Origin: a virus
Lineage: Duplodnaviria > Caudoviricetes
IMG/VR virus record: IMGVR_UViG_3300031211_000007
Location: 1 to 52,664 of that record
DNA length: 52,664 bases
Reading direction: 5' to 3' (one strand)
Under the pieces are notes generated by a model. That model made no database searches. It saw only the letters and a list, made by a program, of their open reading frames with translations, and was not told where the DNA came from. The translations under genes were made by a program, and so were the position numbers. This document shows, piece by piece, positions 1-6,030 of the stretch; position 1 is the first letter of the stretch, and every line of letters begins with the position of its first letter.

Positions 1-6
1 ACACTA

Positions 7-384
7 TTATACTTTCAATACATATGCTTTACAGAAGTTTTTCATAACTTCATTAATATTTTTAACTCTAACCAAACCTTCATTTGCAAAGGTGTATAAT
101 GGTTTATCTTTTTCGAGGTACTCATCGCTGCTGTCTTCCGTGTTAACCCTTAGCAAATTTGAATTTGTCTCTCTCATCTCTTCAATCAATTCGTTGTGGG
201 TGTCAATGTAACCTGAATCGGTTTTGCCTATTGTCTCAAGGTCTAACATCCCTGCCCATACTTTAGCCACATCGTTTGAAATAAACCAAGTTTCATCTCC
301 TTTGCTACTTTTAGTAAATGAAAATCTATAGTCGAACGGTAAAACTAATGGTACTAAATCTAATATGGTTTCTTTTTTTAACAA
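7..384 (-). CDS. hypothetical protein
   Basis: 125-aa ORF whose start overlaps the upstream stop; no recognisable motif. Confidence 0.75.
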   Translation of the reverse strand: MLKKETILDLVPLVLPFDYRFSFTKSSKGDETWFISNDVAKVWAGMLDLETIGKTDSGYIDTHNELIEEMRETNSNLLRVNTEDSSDEYLEKDKPLYTFANEGLVRVKNINEVMKNFCKAYVLKV

Positions 385-626
385 CTATTTCCATAATAAA
401 ATACTTTGTTTATTTGTTTTAGTGTTTCTTTGCTCGGTTCGTCTTGTAAGACCTCATGACTCCTTTGCTTATGAAGTAAGCAGTTATTCTCAAAAGTCAT
501 ATCATTGGACATTACTTTATCTTTCACTTCCCTCCACTTAACGGATGTTGGCAAACCTTCGAACTTCATATACATATAATCTTTGATGTTAATGTCATTG
601 ATTCTAATCAGGGTTTCTTTTTTCAT
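378..626 (-). CDS. hypothetical protein (start revised to MKKETL)
   Basis: ATG at 626 follows the conserved leader of promoter 645-690; the track's start at 647 lies inside the promoter. Confidence 0.75.
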   Translation of the reverse strand: MKKETLIRINDINIKDYMYMKFEGLPTSVKWREVKDKVMSNDMTFENNCLLHKQRSHEVLQDEPSKETLKQINKVFYYGNSC

Positions 627-644
627 TGTGTTTTGATTACGATA

Positions 645-690
645 CAAATATAAGAATAATATCTTGTTTATTATGTTAATGAAATGTTAA
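645..690 (-). promoter_or_regulatory. repeated cassette promoter, copy 1
   Basis: TTAACA-TTTCA-TTAACA-N21-TATATTTG on the minus strand; TAnnTTTG is the Bacteroidota primary-sigma -7 element. Confidence 0.85.
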
Positions 691-692
691 AA

Positions 693-962
693 CTATAAAT
701 GGGTAGTATGTCCACAATCTAAGCATTCGATATAAGCTTTACCGCCTTGAGTTACCGCCACGGTCTCATCAGCTAACATCATCCAACGAGTTTCTTTTTT
801 ATTAGTTATCCCCTCGTCTTTACAATTAGGACATTCAGCATCCCCAAGCCTTTCTTTCATTGTAGGCATATATTTAGTATCAACTAAATTAGGGTATGCA
901 CTTTCAAGTACCTCTTTGTCATTCTTCATCGGCTTAAGTACCGCTTGATAAAACTTTGCCAT
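693..962 (-). CDS. zinc-ribbon protein (start revised to MAKFYQ)
   Basis: CPNC...CLDC pairs; ATG at 962 follows promoter copy 2. Confidence 0.75.
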   Translation of the reverse strand: MAKFYQAVLKPMKNDKEVLESAYPNLVDTKYMPTMKERLGDAECPNCKDEGITNKKETRWMMLADETVAVTQGGKAYIECLDCGHTTHL

Positions 963-986
963 TATCTTGTGTTTTTGATTACAATA

Positions 987-1032
987 CAAAGATACGAATA
1001 ACATTCGGTTTAAACTGTTAATGAGATGTTAA
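987..1032 (-). promoter_or_regulatory. repeated cassette promoter, copy 2
   Basis: TTAACA-TCTCA-TTAACA-N21-TATCTTTG. Confidence 0.85.
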
Positions 1033-1034
1033 AT

Positions 1035-1316
1035 TTATTCACTATAAAAGTCTGGGTTATTTACGTGCTGGTTATAGTATTCTTTAATCTCTTCAATGCT
1101 TTCCTTAAATTCATCTGTCAAGGTTATAACATCCCCATTTTCTCCACGCTCTTCGATGCATTCTTGATGAAGGTCAAATATACCCTTTAACCAATTATTC
1201 TCTGCCTGAAGCAAATCTAATGCCCTTTTACTGTATAGATACTCTTCAACTAATATCTCTTTCTTAACCCTTAATAATGATTTAACATTCTTGTTGCTTT
1301 TATCTAGTTCGCCCAA
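1035..1316 (-). CDS. hypothetical protein
   Basis: 93-aa ORF with TTG start downstream of TATCTTTG (1333-1340). Confidence 0.7.
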   Translation of the reverse strand: MGELDKSNKNVKSLLRVKKEILVEEYLYSKRALDLLQAENNWLKGIFDLHQECIEERGENGDVITLTDEFKESIEEIKEYYNQHVNNPDFYSE

Positions 1317-1332
1317 TTTAATAGTGTTTAGG

Positions 1333-1385
1333 CAAAGATAACAAAATTAAATGTAATATCAAAGGTTTAGGACACTTTCGTGTAC
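1333..1385 (-). promoter_or_regulatory. second-type promoter with ACAC-N4-GTGT-CCTA element
   Basis: TACACGAAAGTGTCCTA upstream of TTTG...TATCTTTG; the same element recurs at 1775-1826. Confidence 0.6.
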
Positions 1386-1388
1386 TAT

Positions 1389-1421
1389 AAAAAAAAGGGA
1401 TAGCCCACAACAGCTATCCCT
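1389..1421 (-). terminator. intrinsic terminator
   Basis: AGGGATAGC/GCTATCCCT stem followed by a U-run on the minus strand. Confidence 0.7.
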
Positions 1422-1448
1422 CACACTAATCAAAACACAGAATAAACC

Positions 1449-1754
1449 CTATTTGTTTTGTATTTCCTTTGCAATATCTTTTAAGTGATTATGGAATTTA
1501 GTAAAGTCTTCCAAACTCTCCCTAACCGTAAAGTTACTTTTATATAATGGGTCTTGAATATAAGTAGTTACCTGCTCATCCACATCAAATTCGTTAGCTA
1601 TCTCAATAAAAGACTTAGTGTTGAGGTCTTCAAAATAAAATATCATATCTACACCACCATCAGTCCATTTCTCAATCTCAGCTGAGTTCCCGTGAATCTC
1701 ATGTATTATAAAATCATTACTCTCTAAAACCTTAATTAATTCATCTCTACTCAT
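1449..1754 (-). CDS. hypothetical protein
   Basis: 101-aa ORF with its own promoter and a downstream terminator. Confidence 0.75.
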   Translation of the reverse strand: MSRDELIKVLESNDFIIHEIHGNSAEIEKWTDGGVDMIFYFEDLNTKSFIEIANEFDVDEQVTTYIQDPLYKSNFTVRESLEDFTKFHNHLKDIAKEIQNK

Positions 1755-1774
1755 AGTATTTATTTTTTAGTTCA

Positions 1775-1826
1775 CAAAGATAATAAAAACCTAGGACTCT
1801 TCCAAGCCCTAGGACACTTTTGTGTA
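1775..1826 (-). promoter_or_regulatory. second-type promoter with ACAC-N4-GTGT-CCTA element
   Basis: TACACAAAAGTGTCCTA upstream of TATCTTTG. Confidence 0.6.
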
Positions 1827-1828
1827 TA

Positions 1829-2389
1829 TTAGTAATTTTGTATTTGTGTTAGTTTGAACTCAGCCGTATATCTACCGCCGTTATGTTTTCTACAGCAATT
1901 CCCACAGGCTGATAGTCTCTTTTTTCTTCTGTGGCTTGCAGTTTCCTCACCGCAATTATGACACTTTAACGTGTATTTAGATTTATTTACATCTACTTTA
2001 GTACTCCCACATCTTTCCCCATCACATCCGATTGATAATGCAATAGTCCTCCAATGCCAATCGTGGTTGGATTTACCTCTAATCTCTTTGTCTATTGCGT
2101 GGGCTATTTCGTGTAGCATTGTATTTTCCCAATCCGCAAGTGTCTCACTAGAGTTTTGAATTAACCACATAGATAATTTTATCTTTTTATCAACTAAGGT
2201 AGTAACACCTAAACCTTTACGTATACGTCTTGAACTACATACGCCAAAAGAACTTTTTTTATTGTTAAATTCGAATCTCCAATTTAGCTTATTCATGTTG
2301 AATACTTGACCCTGAACCTCAAAGTCTGTAGCCATTAATTTAGATGTCATTTCTCTAACTTTCGATAGTGTAAAATCTTGTTTTCTCAT
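1829..2389 (-). CDS. SprT-like zinc metalloprotease
   Basis: FGVC, TMLHEIAHA, NHDWHW and C-terminal CHNC/CGNC zinc ribbon. Confidence 0.85.
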   Translation of the reverse strand: MRKQDFTLSKVREMTSKLMATDFEVQGQVFNMNKLNWRFEFNNKKSSFGVCSSRRIRKGLGVTTLVDKKIKLSMWLIQNSSETLADWENTMLHEIAHAIDKEIRGKSNHDWHWRTIALSIGCDGERCGSTKVDVNKSKYTLKCHNCGEETASHRRKKRLSACGNCCRKHNGGRYTAEFKLTQIQNY

Positions 2390-2412
2390 TGTGTGTGTGT
2401 TTGATTATGATA

Positions 2413-2458
2413 CAAAGATACAAATAATATTTAGTTATTTATGTTAATGAAATGTTAA
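2413..2458 (-). promoter_or_regulatory. repeated cassette promoter, copy 3
   Basis: TTAACA-TTTCA-TTAACA-N21-TATCTTTG; first TTAACA supplies the TAA of the upstream gene. Confidence 0.85.
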
Positions 2459-2694
2459 ATAATTTTACCAATGTATTTATTGATGTCATTGCCCGCCATT
2501 TGTTTAGCCCTTGCAATAAATTCATTACGGCTAACATACATTAGAGTATCTTTAACTTTCTCATCAAACCAATATGATACTCCCTCATCTTCCGTATGTT
2601 CCAGCAGAATATCGTTTGTGACGTTATATAAACCATCACTCATACCAATCCCTTTATTTAAACTGAATTGACCTACTTTTCTTAAAATTTCCAT
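2455..2694 (-). CDS. hypothetical protein
   Basis: 79-aa ORF between promoter copies 4 and 3. Confidence 0.75.
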   Translation of the reverse strand: MEILRKVGQFSLNKGIGMSDGLYNVTNDILLEHTEDEGVSYWFDEKVKDTLMYVSRNEFIARAKQMAGNDINKYIGKII

Positions 2695-2720
2695 AGTGTA
2701 AATGTGTTTTGATTACAGTA

Positions 2721-2766
2721 CAAAGATACAAATAACATCCTGTTTATTATGTTAATGAAATGTTAA
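2721..2766 (-). promoter_or_regulatory. repeated cassette promoter, copy 4
   Basis: TTAACA-TTTCA-TTAACA-N21-TATCTTTG. Confidence 0.85.
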
Positions 2767-2785
2767 AGTTTAAATTAATTCACTT

Positions 2786-2852
2786 AAAAAAAAAATAGGC
2801 GTAGGTTGGAGTCTACTCTTCCAGTGTTGATGTTACACTGCGCCCGTCGTCC
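2786..2852 (-). ncRNA. candidate ~67-nt structured small RNA
   Basis: GC-rich island directly after promoter copy 5, no ATG ORF, three stems (GGC/GCC, CAGUGU/ACACUG, GUAG/CUAC), ends in U10. Confidence 0.6.
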
Positions 2853-2856
2853 AATA

Positions 2857-2902
2857 CAAAGATAAGAATAAACATTGGTTATTTGTGTTAATGAAATGTT
2901 AA
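2857..2902 (-). promoter_or_regulatory. repeated cassette promoter, copy 5
   Basis: TTAACA-TTTCA-TTAACA-N21-TATCTTTG; lacks the protein-gene leader seen in the other copies. Confidence 0.85.
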
Positions 2903-2918
2903 AACTATTAAAATTAAA

Positions 2919-2975
2919 TTAACAAACCTTTAACAGTTATTTGCATTGTAGAACCTATTAATATTTCTATCTTTG
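2919..2975 (+). promoter_or_regulatory. repeated cassette promoter, copy 6 (divergent)
   Basis: TTAACA-AACCT-TTAACA-N32-TATCTTTG. Confidence 0.8.
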
Positions 2976-3001
2976 TATCATAATCAAAACACATTTACAC
3001 T

Positions 3002-3121
3002 ATGGGAATTTATGAAATTGAGACTTTAATTGAGGTTAGTGACGTTGACGGAGTTTGGAGTATGTTAAATGATATGGGCGACCTTGAAGGAATGGCTTAT
3101 ATTGAAGGGAAATACTTTTAA
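3002..3121 (+). CDS. 39-aa acidic peptide (not in ORF track)
   Basis: MGIYEIETLIEVSDVDGVWSMLNDMGDLEGMAYIEGKYF; fills the space between promoter copies 6 and 7. Confidence 0.7.
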   Translation: MGIYEIETLIEVSDVDGVWSMLNDMGDLEGMAYIEGKYF

Positions 3122-3174
3122 CAAAATATTAACACTTTTTTGCATTACAGAACCTATTAATATTTGTATCTTTG
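3118..3174 (+). promoter_or_regulatory. repeated cassette promoter, copy 7
   Basis: TTAACA-AAATA-TTAACA-N32-TATCTTTG. Confidence 0.8.
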
Positions 3175-3199
3175 TATCATAATCAAACACACAAAAACT

Positions 3200-3346
3200 A
3201 TGAACACTATCAAAAACCAAGTTAAAAGTTACTTAACTCACTTAAAAGTTTATTTAGAACTTTATATTTTTGTTTTCTTTGTTGTAACTGCATTACTCGT
3301 TGTAATGGCTTATTTAAACTTTTTTATTAATGAATTGTTATTTTAA
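3200..3346 (+). CDS. 48-aa single-pass membrane protein (start revised to MNTIK)
   Basis: hydrophobic LYIFVFFVVTALLVVMAYL; ATG after the conserved leader. Confidence 0.7.
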   Translation: MNTIKNQVKSYLTHLKVYLELYIFVFFVVTALLVVMAYLNFFINELLF

Positions 3347-3388
3347 CACTTCATTAACAATTTAAACTAAATATTATTTGTATCTTTG
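3343..3388 (+). promoter_or_regulatory. repeated cassette promoter, copy 8
   Basis: TTAACA-CTTCA-TTAACA-N21-TATCTTTG. Confidence 0.85.
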
Positions 3389-3418
3389 TACCATAATCAC
3401 ACACAAAAACCCAATACT

Positions 3419-4078
3419 ATGAATACTCAAAACACAAATTTCTTAGATTTCTTACTTACTTTAAACGGTTTAAATGGTGCTTCAATAGTTAGTATCAAAG
3501 ATTATTTCGTAGATGCTAACAGAAAAGCGAGTAAATGCATTGTAAGTGGTTACAAAAACATTACTATCAATGTCAATGTCAATAGAGAGAGACAAAAAGA
3601 CAAAAACAAAGAAACTCTATTGAATTTAGATAGAGAAGCATTTTTTAATCAGTTTGTTAATGGCAAAGATGATAAATTTACTTTTGACGTATTCAATAAG
3701 GCGGTAAACGCTTTAATTGACCAAACTACAAAAGTAGGTGGTAAATTATCAAATGGTAAAATTAAAACCGAAAGAACAAACGGACAGCAAAATCAACTAG
3801 ATACTTATACAAATATCAGCAAAGGCTTAAAAATACATAACGAGACAAAGCAAGTTTATATAAGTGGTAACTTTCAAACTTCTAGCAAATCAGATAAAGG
3901 AAATTTACCACAATACAGAAAAACCAATAAGCAAACCAAAACTAAAATTCAGGATATTCTTAAAAATGAACTAAATTTAAAGAGTTTTCAATATAGAACT
4001 TTAGTATTAAGTAATACGGAACTAATTAAAACCTCTGGCGTTCAGTTTAACGGACAAAAAATTACTATCGGACTGTAA
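3419..4078 (+). CDS. hypothetical basic protein (start revised to MNTQN)
   Basis: 219-aa ORF after promoter copy 8. Confidence 0.8.
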   Translation: MNTQNTNFLDFLLTLNGLNGASIVSIKDYFVDANRKASKCIVSGYKNITINVNVNRERQKDKNKETLLNLDREAFFNQFVNGKDDKFTFDVFNKAVNALIDQTTKVGGKLSNGKIKTERTNGQQNQLDTYTNISKGLKIHNETKQVYISGNFQTSSKSDKGNLPQYRKTNKQTKTKIQDILKNELNLKSFQYRTLVLSNTELIKTSGVQFNGQKITIGL

Positions 4079-4119
4079 GTAAACTATATCTGAAACAAGT
4101 CCTTACAAACCATTAAAAT

Positions 4120-4148
4120 GAGCCTATTAAGTTAGGCTTATTTTTTTT
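4120..4148 (+). terminator. intrinsic terminator
   Basis: AGCCTA/TAGGCT stem followed by a T-run. Confidence 0.6.
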
Positions 4149-4215
4149 ACCTTATAATAAAAACTTTAACACTATATAGTTGCATATGTCAAGAATCCAT
4201 ATAAGACGTTCTAAC

Positions 4216-4443
4216 TACCCCTCCCCCCGCAGGAGACCCTATATACCCCTCCCCCCGTATACCCCCTTACGTATACCCCTATAGGGTCGCTCATATATGG
4301 CAGTCGGACCTACACGTAAATTTTTTTCAGAAATTTTTAGCAAATCTTAAGACCCCTTTTTTATACGTCGAAACATTACCCCTAAAAAAAAAAGGCACCC
4401 CTTCTTATATACAGAATCCAAAATTTTTTTCAGAAATTTTTTG
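4216..4443. repeat. non-coding C-tract / ACCCCT repeat region, candidate replication origin
   Basis: about seven ACCCC(C)T motifs, duplicated TACCCCTCCCCCCG, duplicated AAATTTTTTTCAGAAATTTTT. Confidence 0.55.
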
Positions 4444-4461
4444 GCCCTTTTTTAAGGTCGG

Positions 4462-4493
4462 TTTGTATATGTGGATTCTTTTACGTATATTTG
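4462..4493 (+). promoter_or_regulatory. canonical Bacteroidota -33/-7 promoter
   Basis: TTTG-N20-TATATTTG. Confidence 0.7.
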
Positions 4494-4519
4494 TCTCCTA
4501 ACATTAAAAAGATATCATT

Positions 4520-4690
4520 ATGATTGCAACAGCTTTAATTGTTACAGCATTCTTTTTCACATTCAATGTGACATGGGATAAGATATATTTCAAGAGATAT
4601 AATTGGGTAAACAATTTACTCCTATCTTTATTAACCACCCTTATTATGTTTTACATACTTGATTTGGCATATACTTATTGGTATGTTTGA
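4520..4690 (+). CDS. 56-aa membrane protein (not in ORF track)
   Basis: MIATALIVTAFFFTF...LLLSLLTTLIMFYILDLAY; two hydrophobic segments. Confidence 0.65.
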   Translation: MIATALIVTAFFFTFNVTWDKIYFKRYNWVNNLLLSLLTTLIMFYILDLAYTYWYV

Positions 4691-4691
4691 T

Positions 4692-4784
4692 ATGATGATG
4701 AATCGGGATATCAACTGGAATTACAATATGGTCCTTTCGGCTGTGTTTGTTGTTCTATATATCATAATGAGTTCATTAAATTAA
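4692..4784 (+). CDS. 30-aa membrane peptide (not in ORF track)
   Basis: MMMNRDINWNYNMVLSAVFVVLYIIMSSLN; tightly packed between neighbours. Confidence 0.5.
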   Translation: MMMNRDINWNYNMVLSAVFVVLYIIMSSLN

Positions 4785-4790
4785 ATTGCT

Positions 4791-4967
4791 ATGTTTTTAC
4801 TACAGATATTTATGATTACTTTCCTTTTGCAAATGTTTATTTTAATAATCTTGACCTTATCTATATTTGGTGAGGTTAAATGGAAGTTTGTTTTATTATT
4901 TTCCATTTTTGTTGCGGCGGTATGTACCTTTGTTGTTTACGTATTGAAAGATGTGTTAATGCTGTGA
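4791..4967 (+). CDS. 58-aa two-TM membrane protein (not in ORF track)
   Basis: MFLLQIFMITFLLQMFILIILTLSIFGEVKWKFVLLFSIFVAAVCTFVVYVLKDVLML. Confidence 0.65.
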   Translation: MFLLQIFMITFLLQMFILIILTLSIFGEVKWKFVLLFSIFVAAVCTFVVYVLKDVLML

Positions 4968-4990
4968 TACTTATATATAAATCATAGGTT

Positions 4991-5299
4991 ATGGGAAATA
5001 CATTGAATGGTGTTGCAAGTAGTATTGCACGTTTTAGCAAAGAGGTATTGGTTAAGGTAATACCAGCACATGATAAGTTAAAGCATTTTTATATTGGTGC
5101 ATTGGGATATTATTTATTTGATATGTTCTTTGATTGCTTTACATCGCTTATTATGGTGCTATGTGGTATTGTTATATCGGAGATAGCTCAAAAGTTATCT
5201 GGTGGTAAGAATGATTTTAAAGAGATTGTGTTAGATATTATATTTACGATATTGCCAGCTTTGTTGAGCAATGTTGTTATTGAGTATGGATTAGTTTAA
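4991..5299 (+). CDS. membrane protein, VanZ/DUF2279-like
   Basis: HDKLKHFYIG...SEIAQK...DIIFT pattern with three hydrophobic segments. Confidence 0.65.
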   Translation: MGNTLNGVASSIARFSKEVLVKVIPAHDKLKHFYIGALGYYLFDMFFDCFTSLIMVLCGIVISEIAQKLSGGKNDFKEIVLDIIFTILPALLSNVVIEYGLV

Positions 5300-5317
5300 T
5301 TATTTAAAAAGAGGTAA

Positions 5318-5677
5318 ATGGCTACAATATTAAAGAAGAATTTGGTTAGGGAAACAACTGAGGTGGTACATGATAAAGAAATCATTGTTACATTGACCGT
5401 TGACCAAGAGGTTGAATTAAAGCTTAAGGGTACTAGGGGTTCTGGTGAGACCATAGGTATCAAAGAGTTATATGAACAGTTATATGGGTCTATTGAGGCT
5501 CAAAAGAGAGATGGACCTATAAGTACTTCTACGGTTAAATCTAAGAAAGGTGATAATAAGATGATTTCCCTATATGATTTAAGGACTCACAATGCGATAT
5601 CTACTTTAGATGTTGAGACATTATCTAAATTTGATGGTATCATTAAAAATTTGATAGATAGTCACAAAAAAAGTTAA
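5318..5677 (+). CDS. hypothetical protein
   Basis: 119-aa ORF. Confidence 0.75.
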   Translation: MATILKKNLVRETTEVVHDKEIIVTLTVDQEVELKLKGTRGSGETIGIKELYEQLYGSIEAQKRDGPISTSTVKSKKGDNKMISLYDLRTHNAISTLDVETLSKFDGIIKNLIDSHKKS

Positions 5678-5751
5678 AATCTTAGCAATTATACATAAAC
5701 ACCTGATTTTTAGGGTGATAATTTTATATTTATATAGTATACAATACAATT

Positions 5752-6030
5752 ATGTGTAATGTTGCCAAAGCTAAGAAATTATTAAAAAAAGTAAAAGACA
5801 GAACTGAAAGGGACTTATATTGCTTAAGAAATGCTTCATTAGAGTCTGTAAAGGTGGACTCTGACATGCTACCTACTATTGAAATCATGTGTAATGGCGG
5901 TGGATATAATTCTCCCTTGTATGAGGTTGACGGTAACATAAAGCTTAAGTACTTAAGTGATGAGAACAGTAAAACTTTGGCTTATCTAGCCTCTGAATAT
6001 TCCATCGTATTTGATTTAAGTAAACTTTAA
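5752..6030 (+). CDS. hypothetical protein
   Basis: 92-aa ORF preceded by TATTTATA (5727-5734). Confidence 0.65.
   Translation: MCNVAKAKKLLKKVKDRTERDLYCLRNASLESVKVDSDMLPTIEIMCNGGGYNSPLYEVDGNIKLKYLSDENSKTLAYLASEYSIVFDLSKL

Follow-up and report, generated by a model that had tools for sequence, protein, structure and literature searches.

How does a phage come to carry a row of small, unrelated genes that each stand behind a copy of the same promoter-like repeat, and does such a repeat only drive the genes or does it also serve to exchange them? The question is raised by positions 645 to 3388 of the IMG/VR virus record IMGVR_UViG_3300031211_000007, analysed here over its 52,664 nucleotides (nt) (this whole stretch is called the window below), where copies of the element TTAACA-N5-TTAACA-N21/32-TAnnTTTG are arranged in two diverging sets. 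An earlier, sequence-only reading had proposed that these are gene cassettes assembled by recombination at a repeated promoter, in the manner of the PeSL elements of T4-type phages. Our comparison of variants from one phage population leads to the same view, to which we assign a probability of about 0.8: the locus would be a recombination-built array of self-contained promoter cassettes, formed by the PeSL mechanism in the accessory region of a T4-like jumbo phage. This view is carried by the differences in cassette order among members of the population, by the enrichment of homology breakpoints at the repeats, and by the single hybrid repeat that is found where one cassette, S, is missing.

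The repeat and its copies in the window

A search for TTAACA-N4-6-TTAACA-N15-40-TAnnTTTG returned eight matches in the window, compared with none in 100 dinucleotide-preserving shuffles, and all eight divergent copies reported by the sequence-only reading were recovered in this way. Five lie on the minus strand and three on the plus strand (Table 1), and the point at which the two oppositely oriented sets part lies between 2902 and 2919. Over 65-70 nt the copies share 61-89% identity, a likeness that reaches beyond the pattern itself, and a profile built from them finds just these eight in the 52.7-kb window, with the next best match at E=0.03. From the second TTAACA to the TAnnTTTG box, the spacer measures 21 nt in six copies and 32 nt in the other two, and the difference of 11 nt is one helical turn. 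In both N32 copies the proximal slot is filled, in phase, by a third and degenerate hexamer (TTGCAT); the hexamers recur with an 11-bp period, and the spacer is fixed at 21 nt or at 21+11 nt. Over the 13 sequences available (the window part and 12 population loci) there are 54 distinct copies, whose spacer is nearly always 21 nt and in a few cases 31-32 nt.

As had been described earlier, seven of the eight copies are followed by a shared G-poor, A/C-rich leader (GTAYYRTAATCAAAACAC-like) and a small gene, with the ATG 18-30 nt past the TAnnTTTG box. The remaining copy, at 2857, precedes a GC-richer stretch that has no open reading frame (ORF) and ends in a T-run. It is also true that the upstream gene may end inside the repeat, because the stop codon of three ORFs (2455-2694 on the minus strand, 3002-3121 and 3200-3346 on the plus strand) is the TAA within the first TTAACA of the next copy.

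The sigma-A promoter consensus of Bacteroidota consists of a -33 TTTG and a -7 TAnnTTTG. The -7 box is present in all eight window copies, and when the -7 box together with the leader was scanned over one genome per species, six matches were obtained, every one of them in Bacteroidota. A scan for sigma-70-type promoters found 19 where 24 were expected and is uninformative here.

Cassette order in the phage population

When metagenomes were scanned for one TTAACA together with the -7 box and the leader, 82 stretches were obtained. Among them, 11 contigs from separate assemblies proved to belong to the same phage population; their shared blocks match the window or one another at 93-100% identity, and the long shared blocks at 97-99%. 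The contigs were oriented along the leftward transcripts and cut at the promoter copies, and the resulting pieces were clustered into lettered cassettes, in which 'a' stands for the ORF-less unit. The order is a-B-C-D-E in the window, a-B-C-D-G-H-I in L371, a-B-C-I-K-L-M-N-O-P-Q in L413 and a-B-C-I-K'-L-M-N-S-O-T in L386. Other contigs cover further parts of the array, namely U-K-L-M-N-S-O-P-Q-V-W (L424), L-M-N-S-P'-Q-X (L435), U-K-L-M-N (L398), T-P-Q-V (L399) and I-U-... (L380), while L416 and L436 hold I and then part of K'. Because the population contigs carry further cassettes, the array is far longer than the eight window copies, and the window begins inside it. The array content also varies within this one phage population; cassettes G, H, U, S and T have no copy in the window, so it is the content that differs and not the order alone.

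Such orders might be produced by metagenome assemblers through chimeric joins at the 65-nt repeats. Contigs do end in or near the array (the window start and the ends of L371 and L413), stretches of about 28 nt are exactly shared between copies, and the Logan contigs of four further runs break at every repeat (1-634, 627-1361, 1397-2423, 2397-2881, 2863-3190 and from 3164 onward). Nevertheless, we consider a chimeric origin very improbable, as contigs assembled separately show the same non-reference junctions (four of them C-I, three N-S, two or three U-K and two I-K), the same alternative cassette follows I in L416 and L436 at 99% identity, and five cassettes are wholly absent from the window. 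The Logan contigs themselves point the same way, with one and the same alternative continuation at the loose end at 1010 in three of the four runs, and again at 2904 in three of the four. A contig of run X22 that joins 634 to 974, and so skips exactly cassette D, was discounted, since its shorter side is 30 nt long with 9 mismatches.

Homology breakpoints and the mode of exchange

The sequence-only reading had expected gene content to change at the repeats in relatives, and the 11 population contigs display just this, the opposite of an invariant gene order with breakpoints unrelated to the repeats. After de-duplication, 45 of the 66 homology breakpoints lie within -55 to +35 of the base after the -7 box, an interval that makes up 19.3% of the compared sequence, which amounts to a 3.5-fold enrichment. 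Homology between the window and L371 ends at 627, the last leader base of the copy at 645, and homology with both L413 and L386 ends at 967, the last leader base of the copy at 987; a further breakpoint against L386, at window position 660, falls in the promoter copy 645-690. What follows this same promoter copy is cassette D in the window but cassette I in L413. In L413, L371 and L380, cassette I stands behind three different promoter copies (after C, after H and after D), and the switch falls within the shared leader ...GTAATCAAAAACACAA. Cassette E occupies two positions, one in the window and one in L386, where the crossover is within the promoter spacer. In L386 and L424, cassette S lies between two repeat copies, and L413, which is without S, has exactly one hybrid copy. 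The offsets of the crossovers are spread (+1, +4, +12-14, +17-21, +31 and -15 to -17, with left-hand homology ending at -47 to -55). The copy before the 219-amino-acid (aa) gene differs among the window, L371 and L413 and combines parts of other copies, a mosaic that points to gene conversion between copies.

Crossovers that keep register, leave behind a single hybrid repeat and scatter over the whole element are what homologous, rather than site-specific, exchange would be expected to produce. This bears directly on an integron-like alternative, according to which a site-specific recombinase would recognise the TTAACA pair or the hairpin and move the cassettes. The arrays resemble integrons in that both line up small, unrelated genes, each of them mobile by itself, with conserved elements at the boundaries, and the borders here carry short conserved direct repeats and hairpins; a speculation in Arbiol et al. 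(2010; PMC2839356) that a protein might target the PeSL stem-loop could also be counted in favour. However, the crossovers are scattered from -55 to +32 instead of falling at one site, each cassette has a promoter of its own, there are no attC sites, and no PHROG annotated as integrase or recombinase was found among the 63 window proteins scanned, which come from about 15% of the genome. We therefore hold a dedicated recombinase to be a highly unlikely explanation. The array had also been called integrase-free, a description that stands for this fragment of roughly 15% and extends no further. No RecA-superfamily ORF was found in the same 15% of the genome, and an ORF of about 375 aa of this superfamily, below the Pfam cut-off, is present in each of three complete relatives (see below), where it is possibly UvsX-like.

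Another explanation would make the repeats co-regulated promoters and nothing else, with illegitimate recombination acting anywhere and selection keeping those ends that fall between genes. Promoter function alone would preserve the similarity of the copies, and the other 21 of the 66 breakpoints lie outside the repeats, some of them within ORFs (window positions 114 and 266-273, at the latter of which L386 has an additional 155-aa P-loop ORF). These breakpoints count against our reading as well, and mean that repeat-mediated exchange is not the sole process. Selection on random joins is nevertheless difficult to reconcile with the cassette S indel, an in-register exchange with one hybrid copy and no bases gained or lost, with the placing of one cassette behind three promoter copies, or with copies that are mosaics of one another and attract breakpoints above expectation. 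We judge it unlikely, although somewhat less so than the assembly artefact or the recombinase.

Several other observations weigh against a recombination-built promoter array. Breakpoints are not fully independent events, so that the binomial p=8e-18 of their enrichment is indicative only. The variants are metagenome contigs and not phased genomes, and the D-E junction of the window occurs in the window record only. Promoter activity, start sites and timing are predictions from the consensus only, and the list of 24 runs that hold the stretch, labelled salt lake metagenome, includes no RNA run. A -33 TTTG was not found 19-21 nt upstream of the -7 box in the window copies, where TTGCAT takes the slot in both N32 copies and the proximal TTAACA does so in the others; as the canonical -33 element is lacking, it is uncertain that host RNA polymerase alone would recognise the copies. 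The window copies have no stem-loop (three were folded, giving -1.5 to -2.1 kcal/mol with z about 0). Finally, the array was not found in 10 records related through the large terminase, three complete jumbo genomes included. One of them (G003) has a single, isolated, chance-like match to the motif, and the closest complete relative (G006, 360 kb) has another repeated promoter, AAACTTGCACAGTAAATAAAT-N-TAnnTTTG, with a canonical TTG at the -33 slot and about ten copies that are scattered over 50-118 kb and not densely arrayed. Because its terminase relatives are without it and G006 uses a different repeated promoter, the array is lineage-specific.

Cassette exchange at the repeats, as read from assembled sequences, is evident from the comparison of population variants, and we would describe the recombination-built array as follows. 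The region would lie at the margin of a hyperplastic stretch of accessory genes in a distantly T4-like Bacteroidota jumbo phage. Each cassette would consist of a repeat some 65-90 nt long (a pair of TTAACA boxes in phase, a spacer of 21 or 21+11 nt, TAnnTTTG and an A/C-rich leader) and a small ORF or an ORF-less unit, and in some cassettes a terminator hairpin would be nested past the first TTAACA and ahead of the -7 box. The repeat would have two jobs: it would give each cassette the same predicted transcription signal, and its copies would offer short patches of homology at which the recombination machinery of the phage could exchange, delete or insert whole cassettes.

Comparison with PeSL elements

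According to Arbiol et al. (2010; PMC2839356), PeSL elements are composites in which a strong early promoter of sigma-70-like type is joined to a terminator stem-loop, and they are located in hyperplastic regions rich in ORFans. The same authors relate recombination at these elements to insertions, deletions and replacements between phages phi1 and RB49 and map the crossovers between the -10 box and the ATG, and Comeau et al. (2014; PMC4122927) extend PeSL shuffling to other T4-like pairs.

The present array is alike in several of these respects. Small ORFans in a hyperplastic region each follow a copy of a host-type promoter module (whose activity is predicted here), close relatives differ by cassettes that are inserted, deleted or replaced, and crossovers fall in the module, including the part that corresponds to -10 to ATG. 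The carrier may also count as a T4-type phage, though a distant one, and terminator stem-loops are associated with the promoter in a part of the copies. At least three distinct population copies have a stem-loop of this kind, with an 11-bp stem and a U-run, between the first TTAACA and the -7 box; nested stems reach -14.7 kcal/mol (z -5.2) and -17.4 kcal/mol (z -4.8), with the U-run after them. Two other stem-loops occur among the window cassettes, one in a composite element that has the -7 box and lacks TTAACA and one as a terminator (1774-1813 and 1395-1422 in Table 1).

The differences lie in the build of the element. A -7 TAnnTTTG with two phased TTAACA boxes replaces the sigma-70 -35/-10 pair, the hairpin, where present, is nested in the promoter with the second TTAACA as part of its stem, and the eight window copies have none. 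Some cassettes are ORF-less units of about 60 nt. The carrier, moreover, is a jumbo phage of about 350 kb that is known from metagenomes alone.

PeSL-like shuffling is already known in T4-type coliphages, and the present case is not a new principle. It adds a new host phylum, a natural population and a distinctive promoter drawn from a host class, and thereby takes PeSL-type shuffling beyond the phages of Proteobacteria and cyanobacteria to an uncultured Bacteroidota jumbo phage, on population-level evidence from natural samples rather than from two laboratory isolates. This suggests that repeated promoter modules serve large lytic phages generally as a means of trading accessory genes, with no dedicated recombinase needed. 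Of most interest is what reads the TTAACA boxes.

TTAACA boxes in Bacteroidia and in other phages

Of 401 Bacteroidia genomes, 40 contain the exact architecture TTAACA-N5-TTAACA-N21-TAnnTTTG, with 48 matches in all, whereas the reversed control gave 1. With spacers from N14 to N28, the 401 genomes yielded 109 matches against nine for the reversed control, and the tally per spacer, counted from the match coordinates and including one N20 match in the unpublished genome G199, is 5, 1, 1, 3, 1, 13, 22, 48, 6, 1, 1, 2, 1, 3 and 1, with a sharp peak at N21. We read the box pair at N19-21 as a small, conserved host promoter class in Bacteroidia. There are 0-3 copies per genome (loci L441-L480), and secreted DUF1573 proteins are most often encoded downstream. 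When 39 downstream host ORFs were extracted and grouped, 15 had the GSCGCTVP motif that DUF1573 proteins carry (Pfam was used to check two), five were TlpA/thioredoxin-like, six were proteins with type IX secretion tails, three were PHO4-like membrane proteins, two were SixA-like phosphatases, two were small Cys/Lys-rich secreted peptides, and six were others, including DUF47/PhoU_div, MoxR and BatD-like proteins. Genes for histidine kinases or for response-regulator or receiver-domain proteins adjoin 7 of the 20 host loci examined, and phosphate-transporter loci (DUF47 with PHO4; Na/Pi cotransporter) make up 2 of the 20.

The architecture also occurs in three other viral records, with seven copies on one strand in G011 (131 kb), four in G015 and four in G014. 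Two loose patterns run over viral contigs gave mostly single chance matches, L272, L023 and L047 being the relevant ones among the matches listed. In G015 (the record of L047) and G014 (the record of L284), the spacers are about 30-32 nt long and contain GC-rich hairpins, some of them followed by T-runs, before the -7 box.

In promoters activated by regulators of the OmpR/PhoB class, direct repeats in phase stand at a fixed distance and take the place of the upstream sigma element. The phage boxes match that geometry, being direct repeats with an 11-bp period, at a fixed distance, in place of the -33 element. The TTAACA boxes are probably a site for a host-type activator of the OmpR/PhoB class or for another contact of host RNA polymerase; the same box pair is found at the same distance from the -7 box in Bacteroidia genomes. 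The phage boxes may be read by a host regulator of this kind, by RNA polymerase itself or by a phage protein. We presume a resemblance of the TTAACA boxes to the PhoP box of Bacillus subtilis; a literature check for a TTAACA response-regulator box gave nothing usable.

Zeng and Chisholm are said to have reported in 2012 that certain genes of T4-like cyanophages are under Pho-box control. The likeness is that a T4-like phage sets the direct-repeat box of a host response regulator (a candidate one here) before genes of its own; the difference is that one or a few phosphate-acquisition genes are concerned there, whereas every accessory cassette is concerned here. We speculate, with considerable reserve, that the whole array might be wired to a host two-component regulator through these boxes and might fire only in a particular nutrient or envelope-stress state, with G011, G014 and G015 using the same switch. 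If this were true, the element would combine the roles of regulatory plug, terminator and recombination site. The TTAACA-N5-TTAACA-N21-TAnnTTTG class, being common to several phages and to Bacteroidia, makes both a candidate host regulator and its exploitation by phages testable.

Cassette genes and the ORF-less unit

Little can be said of the cassette proteins from their families. No Pfam match at E<=0.01 was obtained for 35 of the 37 pan-array proteins, and the signals that were seen comprise one SprT-like protein and one sub-threshold match to Lar (restriction alleviation). Nine of the 10 window array ORFs scanned had no PHROG, no relatives of the 219-aa and 186-aa cassette proteins were found in viral contigs, and the ESM Atlas gave no usable match for the 219-aa protein. 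The description of these genes as serving host takeover or anti-defence, taken over from the sequence-only reading, is a reasonable guess. The roughly 40 small cassette genes with their fast turnover are candidates for host-takeover or counter-defence screens.

The ORF-less unit of the window (2787-2856) has two paralogues in population contigs (L413:11076-11140 and L413:11481-11548). All three are about 60 nt long, promoter-driven by prediction and terminated by T-runs, and they have in common a 5' end of TATTGG and a 21-nt core, GAAGAGTAGACTCCAACCTAC. The summed depth of Logan contigs across 2801-2940 is about 3-8 times that of neighbouring bins. No Rfam match to the unit was found in the window search or in a permissive search of 2600-3000, and tRNA and Rfam searches of the window returned nothing. 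The folds of the three paralogues are not significant (z -1.0, -0.9 and +0.8), and an alignment fold, for which the window range was mis-set, gave only a 4-bp invariant stem.

Carrier phage

The window is a linear IMG/VR virus record, about 15% complete, with about 31% G+C. PHROG matches identify a large terminase, a portal, a head maturation protease and a major head protein, and further genes code for thymidylate synthase, for PhoH, for a Lon-like protease and for HNH endonucleases. Between the large terminase and its counterparts in T4-like cyanophages, in Flavobacterium phage immuto and in many T4-like coliphage records, identity is 26-31%; the kinship is distant. Among its relatives in IMG/VR are three complete genomes that measure 340-360 kb and have terminal repeats. 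The window is a fragment of a distantly T4-like jumbo phage (roughly 350 kb, known from metagenomes) with a Bacteroidota host, because of the terminase kinship, the size of these relatives, and the -7 box matches that fall in Bacteroidota only. No named phage shows near-identity to window positions 1-6000.

In the terminase relatives L137, L138 and L152, whose terminase is 97% identical, the match spans residues 176-610 only, which suggests that the 5' part of the terminase gene has been inserted into or split. A 1192-aa ORF at 14394-17972 matches the Lon-like ATP-dependent protease PHROG 4871 over residues 596-1182 (E=1e-228), and its N-terminal P-loop region matches terminase, primase and helicase-loader PHROGs.

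Features of the window array

The features of the array in the window are collected in Table 1.

Table 1 Positions, strands and properties of the array features in the window
Feature	Position	Strand	Remarks
Second ORF of leftmost unit	7-384	-	125 aa from TTG start, 80 aa from ATG; interrupted or replaced by the 155-aa P-loop ORF in L386; just the final 114 nt left in L413, L398 and L424
Cassette E, 82-aa ORF	378-626	-	No family; same gene elsewhere in the L386 array
Promoter copy TTAACA-N5-TTAACA-N21-TTATATTTG	645-690	-	Leader to 627; predicted to drive ORF 378-626
Cassette D, 89-aa CxxC...CxxC protein	693-962	-	Lar_restr_allev E=0.005, under the curated cut-off; replaced by cassette I (62-aa membrane protein) in L413, L386, L416 and L436
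Promoter copy	987-1032	-	Leader to 968; predicted to drive ORF 693-962
93-aa ORF within cassette C	1035-1316	-	TAnnTTTG box at 1333-1340 without TTAACA pair; repeat family D4
Intrinsic-terminator-like hairpin and T-run	1395-1422	-	After ORF 1449-1754
101-aa ORF within cassette C	1449-1754	-	No family
Composite element, stem-loop and promoter without TTAACA pair	1774-1813	-	Terminator hairpin 1790-1813, T-run, -7 box TATCTTTG at 1774-1781; 3' half matches hairpin-type population copies
SprT-like zinc metalloprotease, 186 aa, HExxH motif	1829-2389	-	PF10263 at 36.6 bits (cut-off 25.6 bits); opens cassette C as its first gene
Promoter copy of SprT-like gene	2413-2458	-	First TTAACA contains the stop of ORF 2455-2694
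Cassette B, 79-aa ORF	2455-2694	-	No family; ORF list, Pfam
Promoter copy of cassette B	2721-2766	-	Pattern search
ORF-less unit, about 60 nt	2787-2856	-	T-run at end; candidate small RNA
Promoter copy of ORF-less unit	2857-2902	-	Pattern search
Promoter copy, 32-nt spacer	2919-2975	+	Third hexamer TTGCAT in phase; predicted to drive ORF 3002-3121
39-aa ORF	3002-3121	+	No family; stop within next TTAACA
Promoter copy, 32-nt spacer	3118-3174	+	Predicted to drive ORF 3200-3346
48-aa hydrophobic ORF	3200-3346	+	No family; stop within next TTAACA
Promoter copy of 219-aa ORF	3343-3388	+	Different mosaic in L371 and in L413
219-aa ORF	3419-4078	+	No family; ORF list, Pfam, PHROG
Terminator-like hairpin and T-run, closing the rightward set	4115-4144	+	Hairpin search

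A second repeat family (TACACRAAAGTGTCCTA...TTATCTTTG) is found at 1320-1384 and 1755-1826, upstream of ORFs 1035-1316 and 1449-1754, and one of its copies joins a CCTAGG...CCTAGG hairpin, a T-run and a -7 box. Where ORFs 378-626 and 7-384 overlap at a T-run, a contig of run X20 has one base missing at 373 (depth 66.5/66.5), and the reading frames around 365-373 may differ between variants. Between the array and the next genes, the non-coding stretch 4180-4470 has C-runs (CCCCTCCCCCC, twice), which are odd for DNA of 31% G+C, and two exact copies of AAATTTTTTTCAGAAATTTTT that lie 103 nt apart.

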